Shown: positions 9,908-43,958, counted from the first letter of the stretch. The stretch: 64,000 bases of DNA from Patescibacteria group bacterium (GCA_963169855.1 CAUJCN010000002.1:452885-516884), one strand, 5' to 3'. Numbers and translations are program-made. Notes: generated from the sequence alone by a model not told the origin.

Positions 9908-9949
9908 TTTTTAAACTTTCTGTAGTATAATAATGGTTATATTGTTTAT

Positions 9950-10648
9950 ATGGAGAACCCACCACCAATAATTGATACAACAAGATCTTTTGAAGCTGAG
10001 CAGCTTCCTAATGTACCGACATTAGAAGCATATACTGAGGATCAGAAGCAGAGTCTACTTATAATATATCTTGCAGATAGTGATCTTCCCGATGTGACTC
10101 CAAATCGAATATTAATGCTAATTCAATACCTCGATCAGTATACCGAGCTTCCACAGCAGACTCGATTTGCCAAGAAACTTGATATGATTAAACAGTACAT
10201 TTTAATGACCACCTCATTAATTTATCTTCACCCAATAGCCAACGAAGAGTATTCAATACCGTTACGTGATTTATCTGGAATCGGAGGAGTTCAAAGTAAT
10301 ACGGATAGACCTGTTGGCATTGATACTGTAATGGCTGAAGGGACTGTTGGTAGAATATATTGGACTAGTGCGGGTGAAAATTTACAAACGTTTGGTGAAT
10401 ATTTAAATGACATTACAAACAATACACTTGGGTTGATTTTTGAAGATACTACAACAGAAGGTGTTAGAGCATATATTCTAACAGCACCAAAACCAGGATC
10501 TGACGTAAAATTACCAGTATTTTCTGCAACAATGCAGAGAGTACTAGACTCAGATGGGAATGTTTATGAAGATATCGATGTATTTTCACTACCTAATAAA
10601 GTTATTATTGATTTTCCTTGGGAGGATCAAAGATCTAATAGTGCCTAA
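9950..10648 (+). CDS. Hypothetical protein (232 aa)
   Basis: Intact ORF. Its 3' end overlaps the convergent comM stop by 4 nt. No recognisable motifs. Confidence 0.4.
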   Translation: MENPPPIIDTTRSFEAEQLPNVPTLEAYTEDQKQSLLIIYLADSDLPDVTPNRILMLIQYLDQYTELPQQTRFAKKLDMIKQYILMTTSLIYLHPIANEEYSIPLRDLSGIGGVQSNTDRPVGIDTVMAEGTVGRIYWTSAGENLQTFGEYLNDITNNTLGLIFEDTTTEGVRAYILTAPKPGSDVKLPVFSATMQRVLDSDGNVYEDIDVFSLPNKVIIDFPWEDQRSNSA

Positions 10649-20000: not shown

Positions 20001-21003
20001 GAACAATAGGTCTTAGATCTGGGGGAATAACAGGCAATACTTCAATAACCAACCATGAAGGGTGAATTGCTGATTTGTGCATTCCTTTGATCAATCTTAG
20101 TCTTTGAGCAGCCTTGCTCTTTCTAAGTTCTGATCTAGAGTTTCTCATCTCATCTTCTAATTTTACAATTTCTTCAGAAATGTTTAGATTATCAAGAATT
20201 CTTTTAATAGCTTCTGCTCCCATTCCTGCTTCGTAGAAGAAGAATGCGTAGCTTTCCAGTAATTGGTATTCCTCTTCAGAAAGAGTTGTTCCAACACTCA
20301 TTGTTTCTACTAATGATTTTAGGTCTGCGAATTTTCTTTCAACATTATCCTGTTTCTGTTTGTAAGCTGATCTTACTTTTGCAGATTCAGTTTTTTCGTT
20401 GTTTCTAATTCTTTCGATTTGAAGTTCTAACTTAGATTTATCCTTGTTAGACTTCCTAGATTCTTCAATTTCCTGTTCGTAAGAGTCAGAGATTTCTTTT
20501 AATTTTGCATCAAGTTCTGTTGAAACTTCTTCGATTTCAGCTGTCTGAAGATCTTTGATACTTTCAATTGCTTTTGCCCTATCTTCATCAGACACAGAAA
20601 TTACAACGTATCTTGCGTAGTAAAGAACTGTCTCCAATTTTTTCTGTGGAATGTCTAAGATCATTGATAATCTATTTGGAATTCCATTCGAGAACCAAAC
20701 ATGTGCTACAGGAGCCGCAAGTTTGATGTGACCCATTCTTTCTCTTCTAACTCTTTTATGTGTAACTTCAGTTCCGCATCTGTCGCAAACGATTCCTTTA
20801 TATCTTACTTTCTTGTATTTTCCGCAGTAACACTCAAAATCTTTTGTTGGACCGAAGATTTCTTCTGCCATCAATCCCTGAGGTTCAGCTTTAAAAGTTC
20901 TATAGTTGATAGTCTCTGCTTTAGTGACTTCACCATAGGACCAATTCATAACATCTTGAGGAGATGCTATCGATATTTTTAGTGCTTTAAAATCTTTTAT
21001 CAT
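17095..21003 (-). CDS. rpoC: DNA-directed RNA polymerase subunit beta'
   Basis: 1302 aa. Zinc-finger [18 protein letters not shown], the NADFDGD active-site motif and the trigger-loop regions are present. Confidence 0.95.
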
Positions 21004-21021
21004 ATGTTTGTCTATTAAAGC

Positions 21022-24000: not shown

Positions 24001-24525
24001 CTTTACGCTGTAAAGTTTCTTCTTTGTTGTTGATGATTTGCTTTCAGAGAATAAAAGACCTTCTGATCTTAAAATCTGGAAAACAACAACTCTTTCATTA
24101 CCATTGATCATGAATGATGCTCTATCGCTCATCAAAGGCATGTCGCATAGGTAAAGTTTCTGTTTCTTAATTTCACCACTCTTCTTATTAACTAACTTCA
24201 CATTTACATGAACAGGAGCGTCATAAGTTTGACCTAAGTTCTGTGCGTCTAAAAAGTTAATTTTTGGTTCTCCCCAAGAAATATCTTCGAAGAAGAGTTC
24301 CCATGAAGTACCTGTATAGTCTTTAATTGGATTAATTTCATCGAATAGTTCTTCGAATCCGTTTTCCATAAATTGTCTGAAGAATTTTTTCTGCGCATCT
24401 AAGAAGTCAACATCTAAATGCGGAAGGGGATTTTTTGTAAGAGTTACTCTCTCTGAGTTTGGATTAGTTGCTTTTTTAGCCATACTGCTTTTGTTATAAC
24501 AGGCAAAAAAATTGCGTATTAACAA
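21022..24525 (-). CDS. rpoB: DNA-directed RNA polymerase subunit beta
   Basis: 1167 aa. The conserved rif-region and C-terminal GGQRFGEMEVWALEAYGA-like motifs are present. The gene lies immediately upstream of rpoC. Confidence 0.95.
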   Translation of the reverse strand: MLIRNFFACYNKSSMAKKATNPNSERVTLTKNPLPHLDVDFLDAQKKFFRQFMENGFEELFDEINPIKDYTGTSWELFFEDISWGEPKINFLDAQNLGQTYDAPVHVNVKLVNKKSGEIKKQKLYLCDMPLMSDRASFMINGNERVVVFQILRSEGLLFSESKSSTTKKKLYSVKLMPHRGNWYEFEVNKYGVMSIKLLQKRPRILLTTLMRALGYSSDAEIQKALGGLGTEENSFLEATLRKDPTKNTEEALIDIYRKLRPEDSVSIENAKALIDNIFFNKRRFYLGKVGRYKLNKKLGIDEDIQIADYILKKRDIVEVIKSLVRLNSGLQAPDDIDSLTNRRIRGVDELVSEKLRAGMLLMEKNIRDKMATYSTDEKVTPAVFINTRPIMSAVNQFFGSSALMRFMDQTNILSELEVKRKISAGGPRGLTKERATFSVRDVHNSHYSRLCPVTTPEGPSIGMVNQLAIYSRINDYGFLEAPYFRVVTKFDLAKDDVKKFKGRMTKGNSFVKDGVELTAEVVEKAKKAKVDAVGIVPFVNKTEVEYLDADNEALHSIASSSTKTDSEGNITDYMAYVREGQGYAKVETSKIDLIDVSPSQIAGLGLSLIPFAGNDDPNRTLIGAKTQTQAVPLIRSEAPIVGTGFERDAAKASGRSIFAEEDGKVIEADSAKVVVEYAGSKSRKQRYNIEKFVRTNQNTCFSQKPVVMPGQTFKKGDILVDGPCTDNGELALGVNLRAAYVVYDGYNFEDGIVVSDRLVKQDILTSIHIQEYIQEVRETKLGNEQITRDIPGVGEYTLRNLDEQGIVRLGASVQSNDILCGIIAPKGETELTAEEKLLRAIFGEYARDVRDNSLRMPNGEHGVVIGVQVLDREKGAKLNAGALKQIKVWVAKTHKISIGDKLTDFHGGKGVVTKIVPVEDMPHTADGHPVDVLIGPASMVRRMNLGQLIETHIGALAKKLGVKVEIQPFAEYSLDKLMQMAKDNGVDYEEKVDLFDGRTGERYSQKVTVGVKYYFKLDHLADHKVHARSTGPYTLVTQQPVRGKAQKGGRRFGEMEVWGLEAHGVPNVLHEMLTIKSDDVVGRAAAYKAIITGQKITAPYIPESFNVLDKELAGLGIKLEKLSAEYDDTRDDMALEEIVDSVGNESKIVVETVDDRGFNLVEDSNN

Positions 24526-30043: not shown

Positions 30044-30730
30044 TTGAATAAAAATCCTTTATCTAATAATATATCTAATATGAGAATTTGTCCTGCAATC
30101 CTAACTAATAATGAAGCTCACTTCAGCGAGCTACTGAGAAGTTTCCAGATTTTTGAGGAAATAGATATAGATCTGATTATCCCTGGAAATCTTACCCCAG
30201 AGAAAAAAACTGTTGGGATCGAATTTGTTATTAATGAAATTTCTCGATTCCAAAGTAAGCGATACAAGATTCATCTAATGTGTGATTTTCCATTCGAGGA
30301 AATCAGAAAAGTTATAGACAAAGTTGGATTCTTGGACTTAACCTTTATTATTCATCAAGAGAGTAGCTTTGACATGATGGATGTTGAAAAATGTAAAACG
30401 CCAATAGGCATTGCATTAGAATTCACCACGAAATTAAAGGACATTTACTATTATGAAAACTTTGCTTTAGTGCAAATTATGACAGTTGAGATAGGTGGAC
30501 AAGGAAATGCATTCGAACCGAAGGCAATGAATAAGGTAACAGAATTGAGGGATTTAGGGTATGATAGAGATATTGAAATCGATGGTGGAATTAATCTCGA
30601 CACAATAAGTTACATTGCGAAATTCCCAATAGATATACTTTCTGTTGGATCTTATTTCACAAAATCCTTGAATGTACTAGAAGACAAAAGACTTTTAGAA
30701 GACGAAATAGAATTAATTCTTAAGAAATAG
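30044..30730 (+). CDS. Divergent TIM-barrel protein resembling ribulose-phosphate 3-epimerase
   Basis: The N-terminus ICPAILTNNEAHFSELLRS (compare RPE IAPSILSADFA.LG.EV) and the C-terminus DGGINLDTI...ILSVGSYF (compare the RPE DGG...GA...V.GSAIF) resemble the epimerase. The similarity is weak. Confidence 0.35.
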   Translation: MNKNPLSNNISNMRICPAILTNNEAHFSELLRSFQIFEEIDIDLIIPGNLTPEKKTVGIEFVINEISRFQSKRYKIHLMCDFPFEEIRKVIDKVGFLDLTFIIHQESSFDMMDVEKCKTPIGIALEFTTKLKDIYYYENFALVQIMTVEIGGQGNAFEPKAMNKVTELRDLGYDRDIEIDGGINLDTISYIAKFPIDILSVGSYFTKSLNVLEDKRLLEDEIELILKK

Positions 30731-30732
30731 TT

Positions 30733-32007
30733 ATGCCAACAATTACAGAATTACCAAAGAAAAGTATTACAACAGAGATTCCGCAGAAAAAATCAAAGAT
30801 AGTTCAGAATGTGACTTTCTTTGGAGATTCAGCAATTCCAGAAGGTGATGCGATTTATAATTCAGTTTTTGATGCAGCGAAATTGCTTGCAACAAATGGA
30901 TATACAATTGTAGATGGAGGCGGCCCTGGAATTATGAAAGCAGCAACAGATGGAGCGGAATCAGTAAATGGCAATACTGTTGCGGTTTACTGGGAACCAA
31001 AATTAGCAGCTTTTTTTGAAGGGAAGAATCTAGCAAACCTTGCCGATAAATCGTTAGCAGAATCTAACTATGTGATGAGAACTTTTGGTTTAATAGAACA
31101 GGGAGATGTTTTCGTTGTGTGCAAAGGGGGAACAGGAACAATTTCCGAATTTGGATTAGTTTGGTGTTTAGGAAAACTATATTACGGATGCCACAAGCCT
31201 GTAATTTTATATGGAGATTTTTGGGACGAATTGATTGCCGCATTTCAGAAAACTATGTATATAGATGATGTCGAAATGGCTGTATTGCATAGAGCAAAAA
31301 CGCCAGAAGAATTAGCTGAGTTAATAGAGTCTTTCGAAACAGTATTCGCACACTGCGTTACTGTCGATAACAGAGCTTCAGACGAATTGGCATTCATTAT
31401 AAATGCAAGGAGAGACAAAACTGCAGAAAGTTACGACAAATTTGCATCAGAATATCATGCTTCAAGAATTGGAACACTGCCTTCTCAAACACAGTTGGAT
31501 GAATTCATTGAGCTAGTTCATTCCCCAGCTAGAGTCTTGGATATTGGTAGCGGAACCGGTCAAGACATTGCTTATCTTTCTCAAAAATATTCTACTGATG
31601 GATTAGAAATATCTAAGCGAATGGTTGAGATTTCTAAACTTGAAAGTCCTCACAGCAATATTGTTCAAGGTGATTTAGTAACTAAAGATATCGGTACAAA
31701 TAAATACAAAGGAATTTGGAGTAGAGATGCTATTCATCATATTCACGAAGAAGAATTAGACAATGTTTTCAAAAAGATTTCTAACGCACTTGTGGAAGGT
31801 GGAATCTTCTACTGCTTGGTTAGAGAAGGTGAAGGTGAAATCGTGGAGAATGAGGATAAAGGATATGGAAAAATGGAACGTTTCTATCATTTATTTTCAT
31901 CTGCAGAATTAATCGAGAGAGCAGAGAAGGCAGGGTTAGAATTAGTAAAGTTAGATAGAAACAAAAGAAGTCACATGTGGTTGATTGGAGTCTTCAGAAA
32001 AAAGTAA
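30733..32007 (+). CDS. Fusion protein. The N-terminal LOG-family (TIGR00730-like) Rossmann domain is joined to a C-terminal class I SAM-dependent methyltransferase.
   Basis: LOG motifs VDGGGPGIMKAATDGA and VCKGGTGTISEFGLVW. The methyltransferase motif I VLDIGSGTGQDIAYL and a post-I acidic region follow later. The gene lies 3 nt downstream of the epimerase-like gene. Confidence 0.55.
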   Translation: MPTITELPKKSITTEIPQKKSKIVQNVTFFGDSAIPEGDAIYNSVFDAAKLLATNGYTIVDGGGPGIMKAATDGAESVNGNTVAVYWEPKLAAFFEGKNLANLADKSLAESNYVMRTFGLIEQGDVFVVCKGGTGTISEFGLVWCLGKLYYGCHKPVILYGDFWDELIAAFQKTMYIDDVEMAVLHRAKTPEELAELIESFETVFAHCVTVDNRASDELAFIINARRDKTAESYDKFASEYHASRIGTLPSQTQLDEFIELVHSPARVLDIGSGTGQDIAYLSQKYSTDGLEISKRMVEISKLESPHSNIVQGDLVTKDIGTNKYKGIWSRDAIHHIHEEELDNVFKKISNALVEGGIFYCLVREGEGEIVENEDKGYGKMERFYHLFSSAELIERAEKAGLELVKLDRNKRSHMWLIGVFRKK

Positions 32008-32049
32008 TTTTCCTCAATTAATTTTAAGCATTAAAAAACCCGCCATTGG

Positions 32050-32076
32050 CGGGTTAAAGAATTAAAAAAAGTGAAA
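32050..32076 (-). terminator. Rho-independent terminator of the histone-like gene, a GC-rich hairpin (AACCCGCC-ATT-GGCGGGTT) followed by a T6 run on the minus strand
   Basis: A perfect 8-bp stem lies immediately 3' of the stop codon at 32077-32079. An A-run on the + strand corresponds to the T-run on the - strand. Confidence 0.6.
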
Positions 32077-32250
32077 TTACTTTCTCTTTTTTGCTGCTGA
32101 TTTTTTAGCAGGTTTCTTAGCAACTTTTTTAGCTGCTTTCTTTACAACTCTTTTAGCAACTGACTTCTTTGCAACTTTCTTTTTTGCAACAGTCTTTCTT
32201 GCTACTTTCTTTGTTGCTTTTTTAGCAACTTTTTTCTTGGCAACTGCCAT
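32077..32250 (-). CDS. Small lysine/alanine-rich histone-H1-like (Hc1/AlgP-like) basic protein, 57 aa
   Basis: Hand translation: MAVAKKKVAKKATKKVARKTVAKKKVAKKSVAKRVVKKAAKKVAKKPAKKSAAKKRK. It was missed by the ORF track (<60 aa). Its own terminator lies adjacent. Confidence 0.5.
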   Translation of the reverse strand: MAVAKKKVAKKATKKVARKTVAKKKVAKKSVAKRVVKKAAKKVAKKPAKKSAAKKRK

Positions 32251-32309
32251 AGGTAGGTAACTTAAAAAATAAAAATAGTTATCTTGGTTATATTCTGAGA
32301 TAATTTGAG

Positions 32310-33284
32310 ATGAATGTCAAGTATTTGATAAAATCGAAAACCTCATCTATGAAGAATACTGATAAAAAACAAGATATAATCAAAAAACTCCAAGACATTT
32401 TTGGAGACGGAAAGGCCGAGCAGATAATCAAAAGCATTACTTTCAACAAGCCAAAAACTTTTAGAATTAATCGTTTAAAATTCACTGCTAATGATGATTT
32501 AAACGAGATAAAATCTCACATTAAAAATGCAGATTTTTCTGATAGTTTTATTTCGAGCGAAGAAATTCAAATTTCAAAAACAAAATTAAATGGTGATAAG
32601 AAAATTTACATTCAAGAATTAGCAAGTATGATTCCTGTTGTTGTTTTAAATCCAAAAACTGAAGAGAATATTCTTGATATGTGTGCATCGCCTGGAAGTA
32701 AGACTTCAATGATTCAATCTCTTACAAACAATAAAGCCAATGTAACTGCTGTGGAAAAAAGTTTAGGAAGATTTTACAAACTGAAAGAAATTGTAACTGA
32801 TCAAGGTTGTGAAAATGTAAAGTTCATTCATTCAGATGCAAATTATTTAATTAAAAAATTTCCTGACTTTGCAAATTCATTTGATAAAGTAATGTTAGAT
32901 GCACCTTGTTCTAACGAAGGTGGAATAGTGTTGAGCGAGCCTTCAACATATAAATATTGGAGCTTAAAAGAAGGCAAGCAAATCAGCAAATTGCAGAAAG
33001 GACTCTTAAACAGTGCTGGAAAATTAGTGAAACCCAGAGGCGAAATTATCTATTCTACCTGTACTTTTAGTGTAGAAGAAAACGAGGAAGTTGTGGATTG
33101 GTTTTTACGTAGAAATCCGAATTTCCAACTCGAAGCAATAGATTTAAAGATAGAAAATGCACAGGAGGGAATTACTAAATATAAAGACAAATGCTTCGAT
33201 TCGACTGTCAGCAAGACTCTTCGAATAATTCCCAATGAAAGATTTAAAGGTTTTTTTGTAGCACGCCTAAAACGCTTACAGTAA
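32310..33284 (+). CDS. rRNA (cytosine-C5)-methyltransferase, NOL1/NOP2/Sun (RsmB/RsmF) family
   Basis: Motifs DMCASPGSKT (SAM binding), DAPCSNEGG (the motif IV catalytic Cys) and YSTCT (the motif VI Cys). Confidence 0.75.
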   Translation: MNVKYLIKSKTSSMKNTDKKQDIIKKLQDIFGDGKAEQIIKSITFNKPKTFRINRLKFTANDDLNEIKSHIKNADFSDSFISSEEIQISKTKLNGDKKIYIQELASMIPVVVLNPKTEENILDMCASPGSKTSMIQSLTNNKANVTAVEKSLGRFYKLKEIVTDQGCENVKFIHSDANYLIKKFPDFANSFDKVMLDAPCSNEGGIVLSEPSTYKYWSLKEGKQISKLQKGLLNSAGKLVKPRGEIIYSTCTFSVEENEEVVDWFLRRNPNFQLEAIDLKIENAQEGITKYKDKCFDSTVSKTLRIIPNERFKGFFVARLKRLQ

Positions 33285-33362
33285 TTAGTTTCTGAAAATC
33301 GGAAACAAAGCACCTCTAAGAACTGCTAAAATTATGTTAATATCTACAGTTTAAATTATTGT

Positions 33363-34280
33363 ATGTTAAAAAATTTAGTAATAGCTGTTGTAGTTATTGC
33401 GTTGGTAGCAGGAGCTTTTTCGATTATTAACGGGCAAAAAAAAGATTCTTTTTTCTTAATCCGAGAAGAAGGCGATATCTTTTTTAAAAATACTGAGACG
33501 GAGTCTTACCTAACACTTTCTCAAGACGAGATTTCTCTTCAAAATGGTAGTTATATTAAAACAGGAGAATTCTCTTCGGCACATGTTATTCTTCCAGATA
33601 ATACTGTAATTTCTTTAGACGAGAAGACTGAATTGCAAATCAATCTTGCAGATGAAGGAATCGAGATCTTCCAGTTTCTTGGAAAAACATGGAATAGGGT
33701 AGAAACACTTACAAACGGAAAAAAATTCGAAATTAAATCTGGCGACGCCGTTGCTGCAGTTAGAGGAACAATTTTTCACTTTGAAGTAAATGCCGATGGG
33801 ACAAAAGGAATAAAAGTTGTCGAGCACTCAGTTGCGTTAAGCAATACTGCACAGGAGATTCTTACTAATGAAGAGGAGAGTGGAGTTGTTAGTGTTGAGG
33901 GCAAAATTACCAAAGGGACTATTCCAGAATCATTCTTGAAATCAAGATGGTATATCAGAAATAAAGTTTTGGATCAAATTAAACGAACAGGATTAGATAA
34001 TATTTTTTTGAAAGACAAGATTAAAAAAGAATTTATTAGGGATGAGCTAGTTCAGACTAGATTCAATATCAAAGATACTAGTGTTCAATCTTCTTTATTA
34101 TCTATTGTTATTGATACAAGTGACTCGACTGTTTGTTCGAAAACTGCAGAAATCCCTCCTTATGTGAAATACTCTAAATTTGGTGAATTATATGAAGCTT
34201 TCCTAGGAAGTTGTGCTGATAACAGACTCGAAGAAGTTGAAATCAAGGAATTGGCAAGAATCTACGCCACAATAAAATGA
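33363..34280 (+). CDS. Membrane-anchored protein with a possible FecR-like domain
   Basis: N-terminal TM VIAVVVIALVAGAFSII. The beta-rich segment ...GDAVAAVRGTIFHFEVN resembles FecR-domain strands. The gene overlaps the downstream cyclase gene by 4 nt. Confidence 0.35.
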   Translation: MLKNLVIAVVVIALVAGAFSIINGQKKDSFFLIREEGDIFFKNTETESYLTLSQDEISLQNGSYIKTGEFSSAHVILPDNTVISLDEKTELQINLADEGIEIFQFLGKTWNRVETLTNGKKFEIKSGDAVAAVRGTIFHFEVNADGTKGIKVVEHSVALSNTAQEILTNEEESGVVSVEGKITKGTIPESFLKSRWYIRNKVLDQIKRTGLDNIFLKDKIKKEFIRDELVQTRFNIKDTSVQSSLLSIVIDTSDSTVCSKTAEIPPYVKYSKFGELYEAFLGSCADNRLEEVEIKELARIYATIK

Positions 34281-36175
34281 GAAGAATAGGGATCTACCTA
34301 CTCATCTGCATCTTTGTAATTCCAATCGTTCTATCAGAACCGATAAAAAATTTAAATTTTCTTTTTACTGATAGACTTCATAATTCTGAACCACGCTCAG
34401 AAATTGTTGTCGTTGGGATTGATGATAAGTCACTCCAAAATATAGGTGCTTGGCCATGGAGTAGAGGTGTATTTGCAGATTTTTTGGGTAATCTGATGGA
34501 AGTGAATCCATCTGTAGTTGGGTTCGATGTGATTTTTGGAGAGAGCAGAGAAGGTGATTTAGAACTTCAAAATATTATAGATGTGAATCCAAATAAAATT
34601 GTTTTTGGAAGCAAAGTCATTGATAACAACGAAGTCATAAAACCGGTTTTTAATGTCGCTTCCGGATACGTCAATTTTGTCCAAGACGAGGACGGCAAGA
34701 TTCGAAGAAATACTCCTTTTACTGTGATCGACTCGGTTTGTGAAACCAGTTTCTCATTCAAAATTTTTCTGAGGTATCTTTTTGTACAAAATTTTGTGTG
34801 CGACGAATTAAAATTGAGGAACAAATTTTATCCTTCCGTAAACAATCGTGTTTCTCCAGAATTTACAAAAGAGCAGTTTAAAACAATAAGTTTTGTTGAT
34901 GTTCTAAACAAAAATTTTAAATCTGAGGATTTTAAAAACAAGATAGTTTTGGTGGGTTCCACAGCCATCGATCTTCGTTCAAGTTTAAACGATAATTTTA
35001 CCGATATTTTTGGAAATGCAGTTCCAGGAGTTGCGATTCATGCCAATATTATTAATGGATTTTTAAACGATGATTTACTTAAAGAAGTGGACTACAGTTA
35101 TTCAATTTTGATTCCTCTTTTAATTTCGGTATTTCTATTTGCTATATTTACTAAGTCGGCAAACAAGACTTTGAATCTTTGGTTATTTATAGTTTTGTTC
35201 GTGATCTTGAATCTGATTCTATTGGTTGCAATTGAATTCAATTTCTTACCTGATTTCGTAACTCCTAATGTTTACTTAATCCTTGCATTCGCTTCTTCAG
35301 TTATTCTTAAGTTTTTTGTTCAAAAGAAAGAAAAAGAGTTTGTTGAATTGGCATTCGAACAGTATATGAACAAGAAATTATTGAATGAATTAAAGAAGTC
35401 CCCTCATAAACTGAATCTTGGAGGAGAGACTAAAGAGATCAGCGTTCTATTTAGTGATATTCGAGGATTTACATCTATTTCTGAAAAATTGGATGCTCAT
35501 GGGTTGATTACCTTCATAAACAGTTACTTGGAACACATGAGCAAAATAATTTTGGAGAACGAAGGAACTATCGATAAATATATTGGAGATGCAATTATGG
35601 CTATTTGGAATGCACCTATTGATGTTGTAAATCATGCAGAATTTTCTGTTTTAGCAGCTTTAGCAATGCAAGAAAGCACAGAACAATTTTCAAGTAAGTT
35701 TCCAAATCTACCTAGAATTAAAATTGGAATCGGAATAAATACTGGGAATGTAGTTGTTGGAAACCTGGGTGGGTCGATGCGGTTTGACTACACTGTTATT
35801 GGTGACGATGTTAATTTAGCTTCGAGAGTAGAAAGTCTTACTAAAAAGTATAATTGTACGATTCTGGTGACTGAGAATACTAAAAAGTTGGTTTTGAATG
35901 AAAATATTAAATTTAGGCAAGTAGACGAAGTAATCGTAAAGGGCAGAAGTACCCCGGTCAAAGTTTACGAACCTTACATTGAAGAACGCCCATATTTCAC
36001 TATTTATGAAAAAGCATTTGTATTCTACCAAAATGGAGATTTTCAAGAATCGATTAATGCTTTAAAATCCATCTTAGAAGATCCTGTATCTCAAACTCTT
36101 TTGGAGAGATGCGAAAACCTTATTTTAAATCCACCAAAAGATTGGAATGGATGTTGGGAATGGGACGAAAAATAA
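34277..36175 (+). CDS. CHASE2-sensor membrane-bound class III adenylate/guanylate cyclase
   Basis: An N-terminal TM and periplasmic CHASE2-like region is followed by 3 TM helices. The cyclase catalytic domain then has VLFSDIRGFTSISE...YIGDAIMAIW...GINTGNVVVGNLG...YTVIGDDVNLASRVES. Confidence 0.75.
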   Translation: MRRIGIYLLICIFVIPIVLSEPIKNLNFLFTDRLHNSEPRSEIVVVGIDDKSLQNIGAWPWSRGVFADFLGNLMEVNPSVVGFDVIFGESREGDLELQNIIDVNPNKIVFGSKVIDNNEVIKPVFNVASGYVNFVQDEDGKIRRNTPFTVIDSVCETSFSFKIFLRYLFVQNFVCDELKLRNKFYPSVNNRVSPEFTKEQFKTISFVDVLNKNFKSEDFKNKIVLVGSTAIDLRSSLNDNFTDIFGNAVPGVAIHANIINGFLNDDLLKEVDYSYSILIPLLISVFLFAIFTKSANKTLNLWLFIVLFVILNLILLVAIEFNFLPDFVTPNVYLILAFASSVILKFFVQKKEKEFVELAFEQYMNKKLLNELKKSPHKLNLGGETKEISVLFSDIRGFTSISEKLDAHGLITFINSYLEHMSKIILENEGTIDKYIGDAIMAIWNAPIDVVNHAEFSVLAALAMQESTEQFSSKFPNLPRIKIGIGINTGNVVVGNLGGSMRFDYTVIGDDVNLASRVESLTKKYNCTILVTENTKKLVLNENIKFRQVDEVIVKGRSTPVKVYEPYIEERPYFTIYEKAFVFYQNGDFQESINALKSILEDPVSQTLLERCENLILNPPKDWNGCWEWDEK

Positions 36176-36176
36176 T

Positions 36177-37607
36177 ATGGGAGAAAATAGAGGAGAGGAC
36201 AACTTTGAGGAAGAAATAGATTTAGATGCTACACAATTATCACCAATAATCGTAGAAGAATTTGTGAATGAATCGGAGGTTTTGAAAGAGTATGAATTTC
36301 GTAATTACTTATTCTCTGGGTTAAATATTCCGTTGGGAATGCAATGCATTCTAGAAAGTCTTTTTGTTCTTTACATAAACAGCAAACCCTATGGTAACTT
36401 ACTTATTTCAGAATTTAGCTCGTTTGTATTAGATAAGATTGCTGGATATTTTAACGATGCTAACGATCCCGAATTTCCTAAGCCACTTTCAGAATCCATG
36501 ATAAGCTTGACTCTGGAATCTGGAGTACACGATAGGCTGGACGAAATAATGACAAGACATCTTGCTAACATGTCTATCGCAGAAGTTTCTCAGATAATAA
36601 ACAATTTAAAAAGCAATTACATATTAATTAATGGAGGATATGATCCTTACGAAACAGCTAGGTTATCCGCAGAAGATACTCAAGAATTTCAAGCTGTTAA
36701 ACCTTTTACTTTTACAGTTTTAGATTTCGATAAAATTGCTACGGGAGGTGCTTTAAATTTTGGTTTCACCAAATTCTTATCGAGCTACATTAGTCGTTAC
36801 GATTTGGAAAGAGAGGATGATGCTGGATTTAAACGTGTAGACTTCGCAGAATTCGAAGCATTAATAATCCAAGATTTCGTAGATGCCAGAACTACAATCG
36901 AAGAAAGGTTCGAAAAGCTCAAAGATGGAGCCGACCAAAGCGAAACAGCTCAAAACTTACTTCGGTACAGGATCGTTACCGACCTGATTCCAAAGATTTA
37001 CTTTCCAGCAAATCAAGAGTCACCGGATGCAGCTTATGCATTCATATTTGAATTGTTAACAATGTATCCACAGATGCTAGAAGAGGAATTCCGAAAACTT
37101 GAACAACTTCTTCAGCAACAGGTTATAGTTCACACACCAAAAGAAATGTTAGATTCTACATTGCGACAAATGGATGGTTTCGCTAACTTTAGATATACAA
37201 TGGAAAGTACCTATGATAGGAATTATTCTATGAGTCAAACATTTCTCACAATTTTAAATTGGATAGATACATCCTCTCAGCCAAATCTTGGATACTACTT
37301 CATGTATGTTTATGTTTGCTATAAAGCTTTACTAAATGTTGACATAGAGGAGGGGATTGTGACCGAAAGTATTTGGGATTTCGAAGCTACAGCTTTAGTT
37401 GATTTGTATGAGAAAGCCATAGAAGAAGATCCTAAGAACTGGGTTAAAATTGCTTACGAAAGTTTCAGAGACGAAGCATTTGTATATTTGAATGGAGCAA
37501 GAGAATTTGGGCATATTGATAACGACATGTTTGTAAGAATCTCTGATGGACTTAAACATTTTCAAACAATGTTTATGGAAAGAATGAAAGTTCTGATGGA
37601 GACTTAA
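36177..37607 (+). CDS. Hypothetical cytoplasmic protein (about 476 aa) immediately downstream of the cyclase
   Basis: The ORF-track start at 36147 overlaps the cyclase gene by 29 nt. The ATG at 36177, 1 nt after the cyclase stop, is the more likely start. No recognisable motif. Confidence 0.45.
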   Translation: MGENRGEDNFEEEIDLDATQLSPIIVEEFVNESEVLKEYEFRNYLFSGLNIPLGMQCILESLFVLYINSKPYGNLLISEFSSFVLDKIAGYFNDANDPEFPKPLSESMISLTLESGVHDRLDEIMTRHLANMSIAEVSQIINNLKSNYILINGGYDPYETARLSAEDTQEFQAVKPFTFTVLDFDKIATGGALNFGFTKFLSSYISRYDLEREDDAGFKRVDFAEFEALIIQDFVDARTTIEERFEKLKDGADQSETAQNLLRYRIVTDLIPKIYFPANQESPDAAYAFIFELLTMYPQMLEEEFRKLEQLLQQQVIVHTPKEMLDSTLRQMDGFANFRYTMESTYDRNYSMSQTFLTILNWIDTSSQPNLGYYFMYVYVCYKALLNVDIEEGIVTESIWDFEATALVDLYEKAIEEDPKNWVKIAYESFRDEAFVYLNGAREFGHIDNDMFVRISDGLKHFQTMFMERMKVLMET

Positions 37608-37651
37608 ATTCTCAGCGAAATGTAACTTCATCTATTGTATAATTTCTAAAT

Positions 37652-38920
37652 ATGAGTTTACCCAATTCACCTATAAAAGGAACTGCTGACTGGTTTCCAG
37701 AAGAGTTCAAAATTAGAAAGTATATATTCGATAACTGGAGAAAAGTCTGTGCGTCTTTTGGATACGAAGAATACATGACTCCACTTGTGGAAGATGTAGC
37801 TATCTACAAAGCTAAGTCTGGAGACGAAGTTGGGGGAGTGGAACTGTGGACAATTGAACGAGAAAATGAAGCTTATGCGATTAGACCAGAAATGACACCA
37901 AGTGTAACTAGAATGGTTACAAGATTTTATGAATCGAAGCCAAAGCCTATCAGATTATTCTCGGTTGCAAACTTCATGCGATTTCAGAAACCTCAACGAG
38001 GTAGAAACAGAGAATTCTGGCAATTGAATTTTGATATTTTTGGATCAGAAAAAATCGAAGCTGATATCGAAATTCTTCAAATGGCGTTAGAAATTATGAA
38101 GAGTTTTAATCCTCCAGCAGGATCGTTCACAATGTTTGTAAATGATAGAGTCTTAATTGACTACATTCTATCTGTGGAGTGCGGAGTTGCTGATGAGAAA
38201 AGAAAAGAAGTGGTGAGATTGATGGATAAATCAGAAAAGATGAAAAGAGAGGATTTTGGAACAGCTTTAGAAGAAGTTGGAGTTTCATCTGCTGGGGTTC
38301 AAGCACTGGTTGATTTTTTAAATATTAAAGAAGCCGATAAACTAGTCGAGAGATTTCCTGCGGTTGCAGATAATCTTGGGTTTACAAGAATCATGAAGAT
38401 TCTTGAAAGTCTTAACATTAGAGGATATGGTAATTGGGTTAAATTTCAGCCAAACATTATCCGTGGATTTGATTATTACGATGGAATGGTTTTCGAAGTC
38501 TTTGATAATCATCCTGAAAACAATCGATCGCTTTTTGGAGGAGGACGTTACAATGGACTAGCAGGGATTTTTGGAAAAAATTCCTTCCCTGCTGTTGGAT
38601 GTGCTCCTGGCGACGAAACTTTGAGACTATTCTTAGAGAGTTGGGATTTGTTAGGACAAATGAAAAAAGAAGAATCATATTTCTTACCAAGATTAGCGGG
38701 AGTTTCGGATGAATCTTTTGAAAAACTAGCTTCTAAGTTGAGAGGTGAAGGAAAAATTCTAGTTACAGGATTAGAAGAATCAGGGTTAATGAAAGCTTTC
38801 GATTTTGGAGAGAAGAGAGGAATGAGTTACGTAATAATCTTTGGTGAAGAAGAAAATTCAAAAAGAATTTATAAAGTTAGAGACCTTAAGACAAGAGAAG
38901 AAAAGGAGTTTAGTTTGTGA
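37652..38920 (+). CDS. hisS: Histidine--tRNA ligase (class II aaRS)
   Basis: The N-terminal KGTADWFPEE, motif 2 FRPEMTPS...RFQKPQRGRNREFWQLNFDIFG and motif 3 GGGRYNGL are HisRS-specific signatures. Confidence 0.8.
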   Translation: MSLPNSPIKGTADWFPEEFKIRKYIFDNWRKVCASFGYEEYMTPLVEDVAIYKAKSGDEVGGVELWTIERENEAYAIRPEMTPSVTRMVTRFYESKPKPIRLFSVANFMRFQKPQRGRNREFWQLNFDIFGSEKIEADIEILQMALEIMKSFNPPAGSFTMFVNDRVLIDYILSVECGVADEKRKEVVRLMDKSEKMKREDFGTALEEVGVSSAGVQALVDFLNIKEADKLVERFPAVADNLGFTRIMKILESLNIRGYGNWVKFQPNIIRGFDYYDGMVFEVFDNHPENNRSLFGGGRYNGLAGIFGKNSFPAVGCAPGDETLRLFLESWDLLGQMKKEESYFLPRLAGVSDESFEKLASKLRGEGKILVTGLEESGLMKAFDFGEKRGMSYVIIFGEEENSKRIYKVRDLKTREEKEFSL

Positions 38921-39651
38921 TAGATAGAAAATACTGGACTGAGCAGACGACTGGGTTTCTTCGTACCACTGCATTTATTAACTCCATTCGCGGTGTTATT
39001 GATCAGAATGCTCCCTTGCCAGTTTTCCTGGTTGATGCTGGATGTTCCGAAGGCGTGAGTACAATTGAACTTCGAAGTTTATTCCCGACCTCTCATGTAG
39101 TTTATGGAGTCGATATAAATTTAGAAGCAGATGCTGATTACAGACAGAAGGAAAGAACAGTTCGAGCTTTAGTTAATCAAGGAGAACTGAACTCCGAAGA
39201 TACTAGAATGATTAAATTTTTAGAAAACGATTATTACAAACCAGTATTTAGAAGAAACTCTGTAGATATTTTTTTGATTTTAAATTCAATAAATTACCTT
39301 TATAGATTTCCTCACGATTTTAAAGACAAAATTCCATTTTTAGTACAGTGCCTTGGTAACGCAGCACTTTCTTTAAACCCAAATAAAGGAAGATTAATCT
39401 TAGGGAAGAACGGTAGGGACTCTAAGCCAGGAAATCAATCTCATCTTGATTACACTATTTTAGAAAGAGTAGGTGATGAAATTTCTCTTAAAGGAGATGA
39501 ACAATTTTACGCTGTTGGGGAAGTTCCCTATACAATGAAATTAGATTTTGCAGATGAGATGAATAAAGAGCTTAAATTTCGTATATATGGAGAATCCTAT
39601 TTAAGACGAAAAAGATCGATAGGTGAAATATCGCTGAATGAAGAAGCTTAG
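38917..39651 (+). CDS. Hypothetical protein (244 aa), possibly a SAM-dependent methyltransferase
   Basis: VFLVDAGCSEGVSTIEL resembles methyltransferase motif I. The gene overlaps the hisS stop (ATGA). Confidence 0.3.
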   Translation: MIDRKYWTEQTTGFLRTTAFINSIRGVIDQNAPLPVFLVDAGCSEGVSTIELRSLFPTSHVVYGVDINLEADADYRQKERTVRALVNQGELNSEDTRMIKFLENDYYKPVFRRNSVDIFLILNSINYLYRFPHDFKDKIPFLVQCLGNAALSLNPNKGRLILGKNGRDSKPGNQSHLDYTILERVGDEISLKGDEQFYAVGEVPYTMKLDFADEMNKELKFRIYGESYLRRKRSIGEISLNEEA

Positions 39652-40832
39652 TTTTTACTATAAAATTCGATACACTCTCGAAGTGTTTCAGCGAATTTAA
39701 TAATATCTTCTCTAGAATTATAAACCCCTAAACTAACTCTTACCGTTGCTGGAACTTGTAAAACGTCTCGATGTAAAACTTGAGTACAGTGGTGACCAGC
39801 TCTAACGCAGACTCCGTTATCTCCTAAATACTGAGCAACATCGTGTGGATGAACTTTTTCGTGATAGAAACTTACAACTCCGACTCCATTGTTTGAGTGG
39901 AATATTCTTATATTTTCCAAACTTCTTAATTCCAACATTAAATCAAAAACTAGCTCATCTTCTATTTCCCGGATCATTTCGAATCCTATTTCTTCTACGA
40001 ATTTTATTGCTCTTGCAAGCCCAGAAGCTCCTTCTACATTTGGTGTCCCAGCTTCGAATTTCGATGGAATTTCGTCCCAAATTATTTCGTCTTTTCTGAC
40101 CTCACGAATCATTCCACCTCCAACTTTGAATGGTTCTAATTTTTCTAATAGTGGTTTTTTAACAAACAAAGCTCCAATTCCCATTGGTGAATAAATTTTG
40201 TGACCACTGAAAGCTGCGGCATCAACATCTAAATCTTTCAAATCAACTTTCATATGAGCAACAGATTGAGCAATATCTAAAACAATAATTGCATCTGGAC
40301 AAATCAGTCTTATTTTTTTAATTGGGTGAACAGCTCCCGTAACATTACTAGCGTGACTTAGAGCAATTAGTTTTGGGTTAAAAGCTTTAAGCTTTTCTTC
40401 CCATCCCTCTAAAAGATCACCATTTTCGTCTACTTCTAAATAGTTTACTTTTGAGAAAACTCTTCTCCAGGGAAGTAAATTTGAGTGGTGCTCTAATTCT
40501 GTAATTACACAAACATCTTCAGGGGAAATTACATTGGATCTTAATAATGATTCTGAAAGTAAATTTAATCCTTCAGTTGTTCCGGAAGTAAAAATGATTT
40601 CTTCTTTTTCAACATTAAGAAACCTTGCTACAACTTGCCTTGCACTTTCGTAAGTTTCTGTAGATTCTTCAGCAAGTGGGTAGAGGCCTCGATGCACATT
40701 TGAATTTCGATTTGTATAGTAATTTTGAATTTGATTTAAAACTACATCCGGTTTTTGAGTTGTAGAAGCACTGTCTAAGTAAGCCAAACCTGGCTTAGTC
40801 GCAAACATTGGAAATCGTTCTTTCATATTCAC
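39648..40832 (-). CDS. sufS: Cysteine desulfurase (SufS/NifS, class V aminotransferase)
   Basis: The PLP-lysine region SGHKIYSPMGIGALF and the active-site RAGHHCTQ are present. Length 394 aa. Confidence 0.85.
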   Translation of the reverse strand: MNMKERFPMFATKPGLAYLDSASTTQKPDVVLNQIQNYYTNRNSNVHRGLYPLAEESTETYESARQVVARFLNVEKEEIIFTSGTTEGLNLLSESLLRSNVISPEDVCVITELEHHSNLLPWRRVFSKVNYLEVDENGDLLEGWEEKLKAFNPKLIALSHASNVTGAVHPIKKIRLICPDAIIVLDIAQSVAHMKVDLKDLDVDAAAFSGHKIYSPMGIGALFVKKPLLEKLEPFKVGGGMIREVRKDEIIWDEIPSKFEAGTPNVEGASGLARAIKFVEEIGFEMIREIEDELVFDLMLELRSLENIRIFHSNNGVGVVSFYHEKVHPHDVAQYLGDNGVCVRAGHHCTQVLHRDVLQVPATVRVSLGVYNSREDIIKFAETLRECIEFYSKN

Positions 40833-40854
40833 ATTATAACGTAAATAAATTTAT

Positions 40855-41967
40855 TCATTTAACTTCTGTTACTGCGTTTACTTGTTTGGATTGTGGAGCA
40901 TTACTTTGAATTGCCTGTACAAACCTATTTTCATCTCTTTGTCCAATTAGTTTCACAATATTGTTCATCCCCATGAATTGTTGATAGAAACCCTGCAAAG
41001 TCTTAATCACTTTCAGTTCAGTTTCATTGTTAATAACTTTGCCAATTCCATAAATCTTTAGTTCGTCAGGTGTAATTGGATGTGAATGAGAGTGGTGTTT
41101 TGTTGTAAATTCTTCAACGGCAACGTTAATAAGTTGTTGATCTTTACCCTTCATAGAGAAGTTTTCTAAAGCGTGTTTAATTTGATCTTTAGAGTACCTT
41201 AGTGCCCCTACATAACTACCTAGTAGGTACGGGTCCAAGTTTTCCTCAAACTTCTTTTTTAGTGTTGTTAGCGCCAGTGTGTTAGCTGTAGTTGTCTCAT
41301 CTACTGTTCCGTATGATTGAATGAAGTCTTCAATTGAAGTAGCTGGGATTCTCAACCCTGGATTTGTAGGACTCTGTATAATAGGATCAACCGGTCCTAA
41401 TTCTGATAAACTTGTAAAGTAAATTTCATCTCCGTTTAGAGCTAGTAGCGTCGCAGCACTTTTCGCCATCATCGGTACAATTACTTCATACGTTTCAGCA
41501 TAATGACGAAGAATCGTAGAAAACTTTACTGAAGCCTCTAATATACCTCCTCCACTGTGTAAGAACAAGGTCAATTTTTTGAATTTTTTACCATTGTCCC
41601 CTTTATTAATAGGAATCAGTTTAAACAGCAAATCATCTAAAAAAATACAATCATTTTGATCCAACATGCTAAATGGAGAACCTGGAATAGAAATGTATGA
41701 TATTACATCCCCATAGTAATCTTCCAGTTGAACCACAGCTTCCCTATTACTTATTTCGAAACCTTTAGACAACAACTCAAGATCTTGCTGATAACTATCA
41801 TTTCCTCTATATTCTTCAAAACTTTTTGTCTCGATCTGGTATGTTGAATTACGAGGACTTTGTTCTGCAGATAGTTTACCTTCACGAATCAGTTTTCTAA
41901 TGAAGTGGGGCGTCACTTTAAGACGTTCTGCAGCTTGGGTAACGGAAATAAATTTAGTCTCTTTCAT
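40855..41967 (-). CDS. Fusion of an N-terminal excisionase/MerR-type HTH with a ClpP-fold serine peptidase domain (S49/SDH-like)
   Basis: HTH ISVTQAAERLKVTPHFIRKLIREGKL. The peptidase region LFLHSGGGILEASVKFSTILRHY...MAKSAATLLALNGDEIYFTSLSELGPVDP matches the LHSPGG...SA.T..AL..DEI pattern of the SDH/SppA family. Confidence 0.5.
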   Translation of the reverse strand: MKETKFISVTQAAERLKVTPHFIRKLIREGKLSAEQSPRNSTYQIETKSFEEYRGNDSYQQDLELLSKGFEISNREAVVQLEDYYGDVISYISIPGSPFSMLDQNDCIFLDDLLFKLIPINKGDNGKKFKKLTLFLHSGGGILEASVKFSTILRHYAETYEVIVPMMAKSAATLLALNGDEIYFTSLSELGPVDPIIQSPTNPGLRIPATSIEDFIQSYGTVDETTTANTLALTTLKKKFEENLDPYLLGSYVGALRYSKDQIKHALENFSMKGKDQQLINVAVEEFTTKHHSHSHPITPDELKIYGIGKVINNETELKVIKTLQGFYQQFMGMNNIVKLIGQRDENRFVQAIQSNAPQSKQVNAVTEVK

Positions 41968-41996
41968 GAGTTAATAATTAATAAATATTGTACGCT

Positions 41997-42069
41997 CAGT
42001 TACGAGCAGTTACCATATTCTATCAGAGGCAAAAATTTATGTCAAATTTTAACGTAACTACGCGTAACC
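41997..42069. promoter_or_regulatory. Operator-like array of two GTTAC copies (41999, 42009) and two GTAAC copies (42053, 42064), with 10-11 bp phasing, upstream of the HTH-peptidase gene
   Basis: cagTTACgagcagTTACc ... acGTAACtacgcGTAACc, seen directly in the 104-bp intergenic region. Confidence 0.35.
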
Positions 42070-42071
42070 AA

Positions 42072-43958
42072 CTACACTTCTTGAGGCCGGAGCTCCAGTT
42101 GGCTAAGAATACCATCGATGTATGATAGGCATTCATCTTTCTCTTCTATTGGACTTTTCTCGAAGAATGTCTTTAGTGCTTCCAGCTGAGTAATTAGTGA
42201 TTCGATTATAATATCTCTTTCTGCTGGGAATTGTTCAATTTCTAAATCGAATATTTCTACCCACATATCAATAAATGCTAAGTAGTGAGGTTTTTCAGAA
42301 TCCACCAAATTATACTTTTTTGCTGCATCATACATTGCGTCAATCATCCCGGGATAAAGAACCGTTGGCACAGCGTGTAGTTTTGATTGTTGTTTTCCAA
42401 AATCAGATCTTCCTACAATCCCGAAGTTATATCCTGCATCGATTTCACCTTCTTCTCCAGTTAATCTTGAATGTCCACCTCCATCTGGGCCTATTAATTC
42501 GTAGTTTGTGAACAAAGTCCACATTAATGCAAAAACTACATCAATCCCTTGTTCAGTTAGTCTTTTTATACTATCGAACGCTCCTTCTAAATATTTAACT
42601 TTGTCGTTTAACCTATGTGCTCCAATATCAGCTCCAAATTCTGTAAGTGCGAATGCGTTAATTTGAGGGAAACGTTTTTTTACACTCATTATCACATCAT
42701 AAATTCTCGATGAATTTAAAAGTTGACCGTGTGTTCCTTTCATTGGAGCAACAACTTTTGGATTTTTCTTTTTAGGAGAAGTGAAGGGGAGTTTTAAAAT
42801 CTTTTGAGCGAATTCTTCTATAAGTGTAACCTCATGAATCCAATAAGGTTGAACTCCCAGAACATCGAAGTACATAAGGTCTTCGTGTTGATACATTCGA
42901 ATCTGCATGGTTTTGTCGAAATATTCCGCGAACCATTTCAGAATCTGGTGACCTGAAATTGTCGCGTTCTGAGTATCAAAGTAAGCCATGTTGATTGCTG
43001 TCATGACTGTGACTTTCGTTTCGTTTTCATCCGCAATTAGCTTTGCTAACATGTAAGTATCCTTGGCTACTGACGACATATTTGATTGTCCTTCGAAAAA
43101 TCTAACTAGATTTTTATCATACGGTTGCCATCTTCTTCCTAAGTAACGTGAATCAAGTTCAACATTTGGTTCATTGATTACTATAAAGTTCTGAACACCT
43201 GCAGGAATCAATTCTTGTAAAACGATGTTTGCATATTTTAAAAACTTTGCTCGAATCGACCCAGTTGCCCATTCTGTTTGAGATCCTGTAACAATCTGTT
43301 GAATTGTTTTTACAAGTTTCCCAGGAGTTACGGTTTCGTCTACCCACTGGATACCTTCGGGTAAATCGAAATGATGAAGAACAACAACAGGTTCTAATCC
43401 GTAACGAAGACACATTTCCGCGTGACGTTTGTATCTTACTAATTCTTGCAAGTCCACACCCTCTGGTGTCATCACTTTTTCCCACACTATGCTGAATCTA
43501 AAAGCCTTCAATCCCATTTGCACAGCTACAATCAAATTTTTAGCGAACTCAAGATCTTCTTCCATCTTCATGGATTGGTCTAAGGAAAGCTCTGATTTTA
43601 ATTGTTCTATTTCTTGCTCGGAAAGATGTCTTCTTTCTGCAATTCCTTTAATAATTCTATCGAAATTTGATTCTTCATCTCCCACCTTAAATCCTCCTTG
43701 TGGATGTGTTCCCACATGAAGTTCTGCAATTCCAGCACCCAGAACAGTTGAGTCTGGAATGTATGAATTTAGAAAGTAGTCCTGAAATAATCTATCTGCT
43801 TCTCCTACAGATTGTGCTGACGAAGTATATCCAAGAAATTTATTCTGAAGTTTTGCAGCGAGTCGAGGATTGGCAATACGATTTCCGTATTTAAGATTAA
43901 AGTGAAGTTTAAGTTCACGTTCGGATAAATTGGTCGCAACTACTTCAGAATTATTCAT
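42072..43958 (-). CDS. Glycoside hydrolase family 1-like protein with an N-terminal extension of about 130 aa
   Basis: GH1 hallmarks are present: AFRFSIVWEKV (compare YRFSISWSRI), HHFDLP (compare HWDLP), the NEP acid/base motif in FIVINEPNV, and a TENG-like nucleophile motif LTEFG. Confidence 0.45.
   Translation of the reverse strand: MNNSEVVATNLSERELKLHFNLKYGNRIANPRLAAKLQNKFLGYTSSAQSVGEADRLFQDYFLNSYIPDSTVLGAGIAELHVGTHPQGGFKVGDEESNFDRIIKGIAERRHLSEQEIEQLKSELSLDQSMKMEEDLEFAKNLIVAVQMGLKAFRFSIVWEKVMTPEGVDLQELVRYKRHAEMCLRYGLEPVVVLHHFDLPEGIQWVDETVTPGKLVKTIQQIVTGSQTEWATGSIRAKFLKYANIVLQELIPAGVQNFIVINEPNVELDSRYLGRRWQPYDKNLVRFFEGQSNMSSVAKDTYMLAKLIADENETKVTVMTAINMAYFDTQNATISGHQILKWFAEYFDKTMQIRMYQHEDLMYFDVLGVQPYWIHEVTLIEEFAQKILKLPFTSPKKKNPKVVAPMKGTHGQLLNSSRIYDVIMSVKKRFPQINAFALTEFGADIGAHRLNDKVKYLEGAFDSIKRLTEQGIDVVFALMWTLFTNYELIGPDGGGHSRLTGEEGEIDAGYNFGIVGRSDFGKQQSKLHAVPTVLYPGMIDAMYDAAKKYNLVDSEKPHYLAFIDMWVEIFDLEIEQFPAERDIIIESLITQLEALKTFFEKSPIEEKDECLSYIDGILSQLELRPQEV

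Follow-up and report, generated by a model that had tools for sequence, protein, structure and literature searches.

Does a gene that starts almost at the stop codon of a membrane-bound nucleotidyl cyclase encode the protein that reads the cyclase's signal? The question is raised by a 64,000-nucleotide (nt) stretch of DNA from a Patescibacteria group bacterium (GCA_963169855.1, CAUJCN010000002.1:452885-516884), here called the window, in which three plus-strand open reading frames (ORFs) adjoin one another: a FecR-like gene (33363-34280; 305 amino acids (aa), PF04773), a gene for a CHASE2-class III cyclase (34277-36175; 632 aa, PF05226 and PF00211), and a third gene, G3 (36177-37607; 476 aa). 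An initial annotation treated the three as one cassette and proposed G3 as a candidate new effector or receptor for the cyclase's product, a cyclic nucleotide. Our analysis points elsewhere: the locus probably encodes a two-gene FecR and CHASE2 cyclase system that senses an extracytoplasmic signal and makes cyclic AMP (cAMP), with the receptor encoded elsewhere, and G3 would be a co-transcribed, clade-specific protein that lies outside the module.

Judged by its sequence, the class III cyclase that follows the CHASE2 sensor is intact. Pfam recognises a CHASE2 domain (PF05226; aa 12-271, nt 34310-35089; E 7.5e-46, 157.2 bits against a cut-off of 26.3) that is predicted to be extracytoplasmic, and a Guanylate_cyc catalytic domain (PF00211; aa 385-559, nt 35429-35953; E 2.6e-29, 102.5 bits against a cut-off of 21.9) that is predicted to be cytoplasmic. 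Hydropathy places one transmembrane (TM) segment at aa 1-26 (TM1) and three more within aa 271-350, and the protein ends in a helical C-terminal tail (aa 565-632) that is conserved to its final residue (W..WDEK). The class III motifs FSDIRGFT (aa 392-399), IDKYIGDAIMAIW (aa 432-444), GNVVVGNLG (aa 490-498) and DYTVIGDDVNLASRVES (aa 504-520) are all present behind the CHASE2 sensor, as first annotated, and the six catalytic residues, D394, D438, K434, T506, N513 and R517, do not vary across 25 of 25 homologues (35-73% identity).

The best solved relative is CyaB of Pseudomonas aeruginosa (PDB 3r5g, E 2.1e-34). The two metal-binding aspartates, which the initial annotation had singled out for closer alignment, are both present, D394 in FSDIRGFT and D438 in GDAIMA, and align with those of CyaB. 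Inspection of the substrate-specifying residues, which it had also proposed, gives an adenylate-cyclase pair of the class IIIb type, Lys434/Thr506: K434 aligns with the lysine of CyaB and with that of the adenylate-converted Cya2 variant 6fht, a position occupied by glutamate in the guanylate cyclase Cya2 (2w01), and T506 aligns with the threonine of CyaB. The transition-state pair, N513 and R517, sits in DDVNLASRVES. In the classification of Linder and Schultz, a threonine in class IIIb reportedly replaces the aspartate found in the remaining adenylate cyclases, and guanylate cyclases are said to be marked by Glu/Cys or Glu/Gly. Because the Lys434/Thr506 pair is present, all six residues are intact, and CyaB is the closest solved relative, the enzyme is predicted to be a class IIIb adenylate cyclase with cAMP as its product, and because the single chain carries the full residue set it is expected to act as a homodimer with two active sites, as is established for class III cyclases. 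The likeness to CyaB thus takes in the metal-binding aspartates, the Lys/Thr pair and the Asn/Arg pair of the catalytic domain; the sensor of CyaB is a membrane MASE2 domain, not CHASE2, and to our knowledge CyaB has no FecR partner.

The protein encoded upstream carries a FecR domain (PF04773; aa 65-155, nt 33555-33827; Pfam E 4.3e-11, 43.6 bits against a cut-off of 24), predicted to be extracytoplasmic, and an N-terminal membrane anchor (aa 1-26, nt 33363-33440) that is its sole TM segment by hydropathy, which bears out the earlier description of a membrane-anchored FecR-like protein upstream of the cyclase. Its C-terminal region is conserved and lies outside named domains. The closest named relatives are two FecR-domain surface proteins of Leptospira, Lsa33 and LipL45, the NCBIfam likeness to which is weak and far under their cut-offs. 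The stop codon of the FecR gene and the start codon of the cyclase gene share the tetranucleotide ATGA, so that the genes overlap by 4 nt, as expected for the translational coupling that had been suggested for them. The periplasmic FecR domain is also found in Escherichia coli FecR, the anti-sigma factor of the FecI/FecA iron-citrate system; the protein here, however, begins with the membrane helix and is without the cytoplasmic N-terminal anti-sigma domain. No family match to an extracytoplasmic function sigma factor (sigma-70 regions 2 and 4) or to a TonB-dependent receptor was found among the window proteins scanned with Pfam.

The association of these two genes is seen well beyond this locus. 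The best 120 cyclase homologues are 33-73% identical over their full length and all have the CHASE2 plus cyclase architecture; the named ones come from metagenome-assembled genomes (MAGs) of Candidatus Dojkabacteria, WWE3, Gracilibacteria and 'Patescibacteria group' bacteria. By these named homologues the window comes from a bacterium of the Candidate Phyla Radiation (CPR), most likely one of the Dojkabacteria. Because homologues across the lineages of this radiation keep the full architecture, the gene pair appears to be common within it, and the view that cyclic-nucleotide signalling is unexpected in such a streamlined genome is not one that we can share.

Ten further CPR loci were examined: L005, with a cyclase 73% identical to that of the window; L006, L088, L089 and L090, with cyclases at 44-47%; L091 (WWE3); L092 (labelled Gracilibacteria); L008 (Saccharibacteria); and L010 and L014 (Patescibacteria or unnamed). 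A FecR gene lies immediately upstream of the cyclase in 11 of 11 CPR loci with a visible upstream gene (the window and these ten), often with the same 4-nt overlap. The gene downstream varies among the more distant loci, and only L005 matches the window: there are opposite-strand genes without annotation in L006 and L088, a gene for an unannotated 231-aa protein after a gap of 430 nt in L089, one for an unannotated 250-aa protein in L090, a glucose dehydrogenase-like gene in L091, and an opposite-strand alternative oxidase gene in L092. In these loci the conserved unit is FecR plus cyclase, not three genes.

Dojkabacteria that are more distantly related carry, ahead of the pair, a gene for a protein of about 300 aa (L006 4054-4944, L088 2952-3917, L089 3097-3963), which has a hydrophobic N-terminus and weak PKD/Ig-like matches and is 24-28% identical among its three copies; the window lacks this gene. 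It is the upstream gene, not the downstream one, that looks like a recurrent third partner in this phylum. CHASE2 cyclases 31-35% identical to that of the window also occur on four contigs labelled Woesearchaeota or Methanosarcinales (L009, L011, L013 and L087), with FecR directly upstream in L009, L013 and L087; these are either misbinned CPR DNA or the result of transfer into archaea.

A second sample, comprising 80 CHASE2-cyclase loci listed by a genome scan, covers many phyla and is mostly non-CPR, with no Dojkabacteria. Among the loci listed, FecR is the commonest Pfam family directly upstream of the cyclase (13 of 74), followed by FHA (8 of 74), and in 9 of 71 the gene directly downstream is of the class II cAMP phosphodiesterase (PDEase_II)/metallo-beta-lactamase type, the commonest family on that side. 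With an iterated FecR-domain profile, a FecR-domain ORF was detected in the flanking DNA at about 33 of 86 loci. As a module, the FecR-cyclase pair is both known and widespread, and the locus described here adds another member to it.

Two described systems are close to it. A gene cluster in Campylobacterota encodes a CHASE2 adenylate cyclase, a phosphodiesterase, a FecR-domain protein and a TPR protein (PMC9239204). The adjacent FecR-domain protein and CHASE2 adenylate cyclase are common to both loci; in contrast, the locus here has neither the class II phosphodiesterase nor the TPR protein and is flanked by rsmB-like and hisS genes, and its FecR-like protein is anchored in the membrane, not the outer membrane, the CPR host being probably without an outer membrane. 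The Sinorhizobium meliloti cyclases CyaD1, CyaD2 and CyaK have the same CHASE2 plus class III architecture, turn an extracellular cue into cAMP, and act through the CRP-like regulator Clr, and the same regulon includes a FecR-domain gene, smc02177 (PMC13001267, PMC5498481). That pathway, in which the signal is perceived via NsrA, has an outer-membrane beta-barrel partner as well as its CRP-type receptor, and neither was seen in this window.

What, then, is G3? It encodes an acidic (pI 4.4), soluble protein without a TM segment by hydropathy, in keeping with its first description as a large cytoplasmic protein without annotation, and no family reaches threshold. Because an ORF of about 1.4-1.5 kb has been kept in three lineages of an AT-rich genome, G3 is a real gene. 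G3 and its relatives have no match in Pfam, PADLOC or PHROGs, nor has G3 itself in NCBIfam. An exhaustive HMMER scan of 1.84e9 representative proteins yielded three relatives only, at 26-28% identity and all from close kin; a word-indexed search of 5.8e9 proteins returned G3 itself alone, or, with the four-member profile, itself and P0122 only, and no relatives came from the JGI metagenomes scanned with the G3 alignment. The four-member profile gave nothing below E 0.1 against PDB sequences, and there was no significant fold match. Two AlphaFold2 models built from three-sequence alignments consist almost only of helices by DSSP at mean confidences (pLDDT) of 52.6 and 54.6, which are too low for fold assignment. 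There are 58 invariant columns in the four-member family, none of them histidine or cysteine.

Several identities were tried for G3 and set aside. A CAP-type receptor with a cyclic-nucleotide-binding domain is disfavoured by the lack of a match to PF00027 or to any other Pfam family at E<=0.1, the lack of likeness to CRP, and the presence of helices only in the low-confidence models, so that this rejection rests mainly on the sequence searches and on secondary structure. Because G3 is predicted to be all-helical, neither the beta barrel of a CAP-type cyclic-nucleotide-binding domain nor the alpha/beta fold of GAF would fit, an argument that is no stronger than the prediction itself. An HD/HD-GYP or metallo-beta-lactamase phosphodiesterase was rejected on the lack of an invariant histidine or cysteine among the 58 columns and of a Pfam match, and a TPR protein or phosphodiesterase on the lack of PDEase_II, Lactamase_B or TPR matches (E<=0.01 for the relatives, E<=0.1 for the window protein). 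A Pycsar effector, in which a cyclic-nucleotide-binding domain is fused to a TM segment or a TIR domain, was likewise rejected, there being no PADLOC model match, no TM segment and no TIR domain.

Comparison with two related loci shows how G3 travels. The G3 genes of L005 (2515-4041) and of L007 (GCA_964650085.1; 8001-9524) are syntenic with that of the window and their products are 23-25% identical to it and 46% identical to each other. In L005, G3 begins 39 nt after the 73%-identical cyclase and is followed by hisS, the gene for histidyl-tRNA synthetase (HisRS). L007 has the order ribulose-phosphate epimerase, SLOG-methyltransferase, RsmB, FecR (305 aa), an AT-rich spacer of 212 bp, G3 (507 aa) and HisRS, and a tblastn search across its 17.5 kb revealed no trace or remnant of a cyclase. 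HisRS thus follows G3 in both, at 81-82% identity to the window. The FecR-like protein of the window is 57% identical to that of L007 (6871-7788) and 68% identical to a fragment in L005. Identity between the window and L007 is 84% for the SLOG-methyltransferase and for an aminotransferase, 81% for HisRS, 68% for RsmB and 57% for FecR, and falls to 25% for G3, which by these figures is a clade-restricted orphan diverging far faster than the genes around it. Because more distant Dojkabacteria carry the FecR-cyclase pair, the likeliest course is loss of the cyclase along the L007 lineage, with FecR and G3 left intact. On this gene order, G3 can exist without a neighbouring cyclase.

In L007 the HisRS call (9517-11085, 522 aa) probably starts too far upstream, as its likeness to the window HisRS sets in near 9598; it also has a Pfam FtsK_gamma match, the extra segment being apparently C-terminal, that is missing from the 422-aa HisRS of the window.

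The proposal that the three genes form one cassette, with G3 as a new cytoplasmic receptor or effector for the cyclic nucleotide, drew on the spacing of the genes and on an apparent gap. G3 begins 1 nt past the cyclase stop codon, or overlaps the cyclase gene by 29 nt, with no terminator between them, it follows the cyclase in L005 also, and no CAP-type receptor is found in the window. This last observation of the initial annotation stands: Pfam scans of the called window proteins (all but two large ORFs at 17095-24525, with three proteins at 39648-43958 judged from precomputed annotation) found no cyclic-nucleotide-binding, GAF or cyclic-nucleotide phosphodiesterase family, and a phmmer search with CRP over all 58 called window proteins found nothing. 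Its weak point is that the contig is at least 818 kb long and the 64-kb window makes up less than 8% of it; because the window is so small a part of the contig, a missing receptor within it says little. We regard the proposal as unlikely, because G3 has no cyclic-nucleotide-binding, GAF, HD, TIR or other family match and no fold match, is predicted to be all-helical, and has no invariant histidine or cysteine, and because a profile search placed no member of its family near any of about 85 other CHASE2 cyclases among the loci listed. The annotation had itself said that its case would suffer if the third protein turned out to be an unrelated housekeeping protein 'elsewhere found without a cyclase', and L007, which keeps FecR and G3 with no cyclase beside them, comes close to being such a case.

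The two-gene arrangement suggests the following mechanism. The FecR-like protein would be held in the membrane by its single N-terminal helix with the FecR domain outside the cell, and the CHASE2 domain would likewise lie outside, between TM1 and the bundle of three helices, with the catalytic domain inside. The FecR-like protein may act on CHASE2 as a co-sensor or modulator, either by touching it or by offering it a ligand. The membrane helices would relay the signal to the class IIIb cyclase, a homodimer with two symmetric active sites, in each of which Asp394 and Asp438 would bind two metals, Lys434 and Thr506 would select adenine, and Asn513 and Arg517 would stabilise the transition state. 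The product would be cAMP, and its receptor would be encoded beyond the 64-kb window. The adjacency of G3 would reflect local synteny among close relatives, not a conserved partnership with the cyclase, and would leave G3 outside the pathway.

Several points weigh against leaving G3 out. Because the two genes nearly abut (or overlap) and no terminator-like site lies between them, co-translation of cyclase and G3 is likely, and tight gene coupling often signals shared function. G3 directly follows the cyclase in two of the three genomes that have it. The L007 genome may carry a cyclase elsewhere, so that G3 without an adjacent cyclase is no proof of independence from cAMP, and the low-confidence models of G3 may leave room for a novel nucleotide-binding fold. 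For the pair itself, contact between FecR and CHASE2 is something we infer.

These points could be assembled into a different account, in which G3 and its three relatives form a new, fast-evolving family of cytoplasmic cAMP-responsive proteins in one Dojkabacteria clade, with a fold unrelated to CAP, GAF or PilZ-like domains, coupled to the cyclase that feeds it, the L007 cyclase being encoded elsewhere. We think this quite improbable; if it were true, it would mean a receptor fold unrelated to any of those three domain types.

It could also be argued that G3 partners the FecR-like protein and not the cyclase, FecR and G3 being the conserved pair of the clade and the cyclase dispensable, since FecR lies upstream in all three genomes that have G3, and L007 has both genes intact (305 and 507 aa) without a cyclase. 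However, beyond its TM segment (aa 1-26) the FecR-like protein is predicted to be essentially all outside the cell, and G3 has neither a signal peptide nor a TM segment; because the two are on opposite predicted sides of the membrane, direct contact between them is unlikely. In the ten-locus CPR set, moreover, FecR and cyclase occur without G3 apart from L005, and the shared gene order is equally explained by the general synteny from rsmB to hisS among close relatives, so that we give this arrangement very little credence. An anti-phage pair of the Pycsar kind, in which infection would trigger a cyclase that makes a cyclic (pyrimidine) nucleotide and the next gene, G3, would be a rapidly evolving effector, seems far-fetched: the cyclase domain does match PADLOC PycC models (best E 6.8e-27) and the downstream orphan diverges fast, like many defence genes, but that match is confined to the catalytic domain common to class III enzymes, adenylate cyclases head the solved relatives (CyaB, E 2e-34), with only adenylate- or guanylate-type cyclases among the matches listed, the Lys/Thr pair is of the adenylate-cyclase type, G3 has no PADLOC match, TM segment or TIR domain, and a CHASE2 sensor with a conserved FecR partner in differing housekeeping contexts across the CPR is unlike a mobile defence island.

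With the FecR-cyclase pair taken as the unit, the surroundings of the locus are easily described. Upstream is a gene for an RsmB/F-type rRNA methyltransferase (32310-33284, plus strand; PF01189, E 6.7e-45), which ends 78 nt before the FecR gene begins, and downstream is hisS (37652-38920, plus strand; 422 aa, PF13393, E 2.2e-39), which starts 44 nt after the end of G3; both are housekeeping genes outside the module. The three genes sit within a run of eight co-directional plus-strand genes (30044-39651) that includes the rsmB-like gene and hisS, and G3 is probably co-transcribed with its neighbours in this run. The initial annotation was right that three ORFs adjoin one another at these positions; because they are part of the longer eight-gene run, the boundary of a 'three-gene cassette' is not given by the sequence. 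In a scan for promoters and terminators, shuffled sequence yielded more sites than the real one, so that the scan is uninformative; it revealed no terminator-like site between the cyclase and G3, and no terminator-like or above-chance promoter-like signal bounding the three-gene unit. An Rfam search of the window gave no match.

The spacing between cyclase and G3 depends on which start codon is used. The cyclase stop codon TAA occupies 36173-36175 and the internal ATG of G3 is at 36177, 1 nt beyond it, in agreement with the first annotation for the 476-aa form, which does not overlap the cyclase; the longest ORF (36147-37607) gives a 486-aa form that overlaps it by 29 nt. Alignment of the homologues did not settle the choice between the starts at 36147 and 36177. 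With the longer ORF, the beginning of G3 would fall within the stretch that encodes the cyclase tail, whose last residue, K632, is invariant in 25 homologues.

Other features of the window are recorded here. Its G+C content is 32-38% and its GC skew switches sign several times; dnaA lies within it (8513-9907, plus strand), and the region may be near the replication origin. Within the eight-gene run, 30733-32007 (plus strand) encodes an unusual 424-aa fusion of a SLOG/LOG-like domain (PF18306, PF03641) and an S-adenosylmethionine-dependent methyltransferase, which is 84% identical in L007, and a 244-aa methyltransferase-like gene (38917-39651) that overlaps hisS is missing in L007. A 381-aa fusion of Sua5/YrdC and TsaE, both components of the t6A tRNA-modification pathway, is encoded at 50428-51573 (minus strand). 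A 214-aa protein of the metallo-beta-lactamase fold (PF13483), which is also the fold of class II cAMP phosphodiesterases, is encoded at 5547-6191 (minus strand); the cyclase lies 28 kb away, and nothing ties this gene to it.

We have described here a locus at which the function of a third gene had been read from its position, and the result corrects that inference of guilt by adjacency. G3 is one more fast-evolving, unannotatable protein of the kind that fills CPR genomes and opens no new question alone. The pair upstream of it is of wider interest. We found no discussion of a FecR-CHASE2 adenylate cyclase pair in CPR bacteria in the literature searched, and this pair seems to recur regularly in CPR/Patescibacteria genomes, occurring in MAGs labelled Dojkabacteria, WWE3, Saccharibacteria and Gracilibacteria. 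The life usually ascribed to CPR bacteria is one of attachment to host cells, and because of this way of life, and because the sensor is conserved at the cell surface, a cAMP-making surface sensor of this kind is a reasonable candidate for the sensing of the host or the environment in the CPR.

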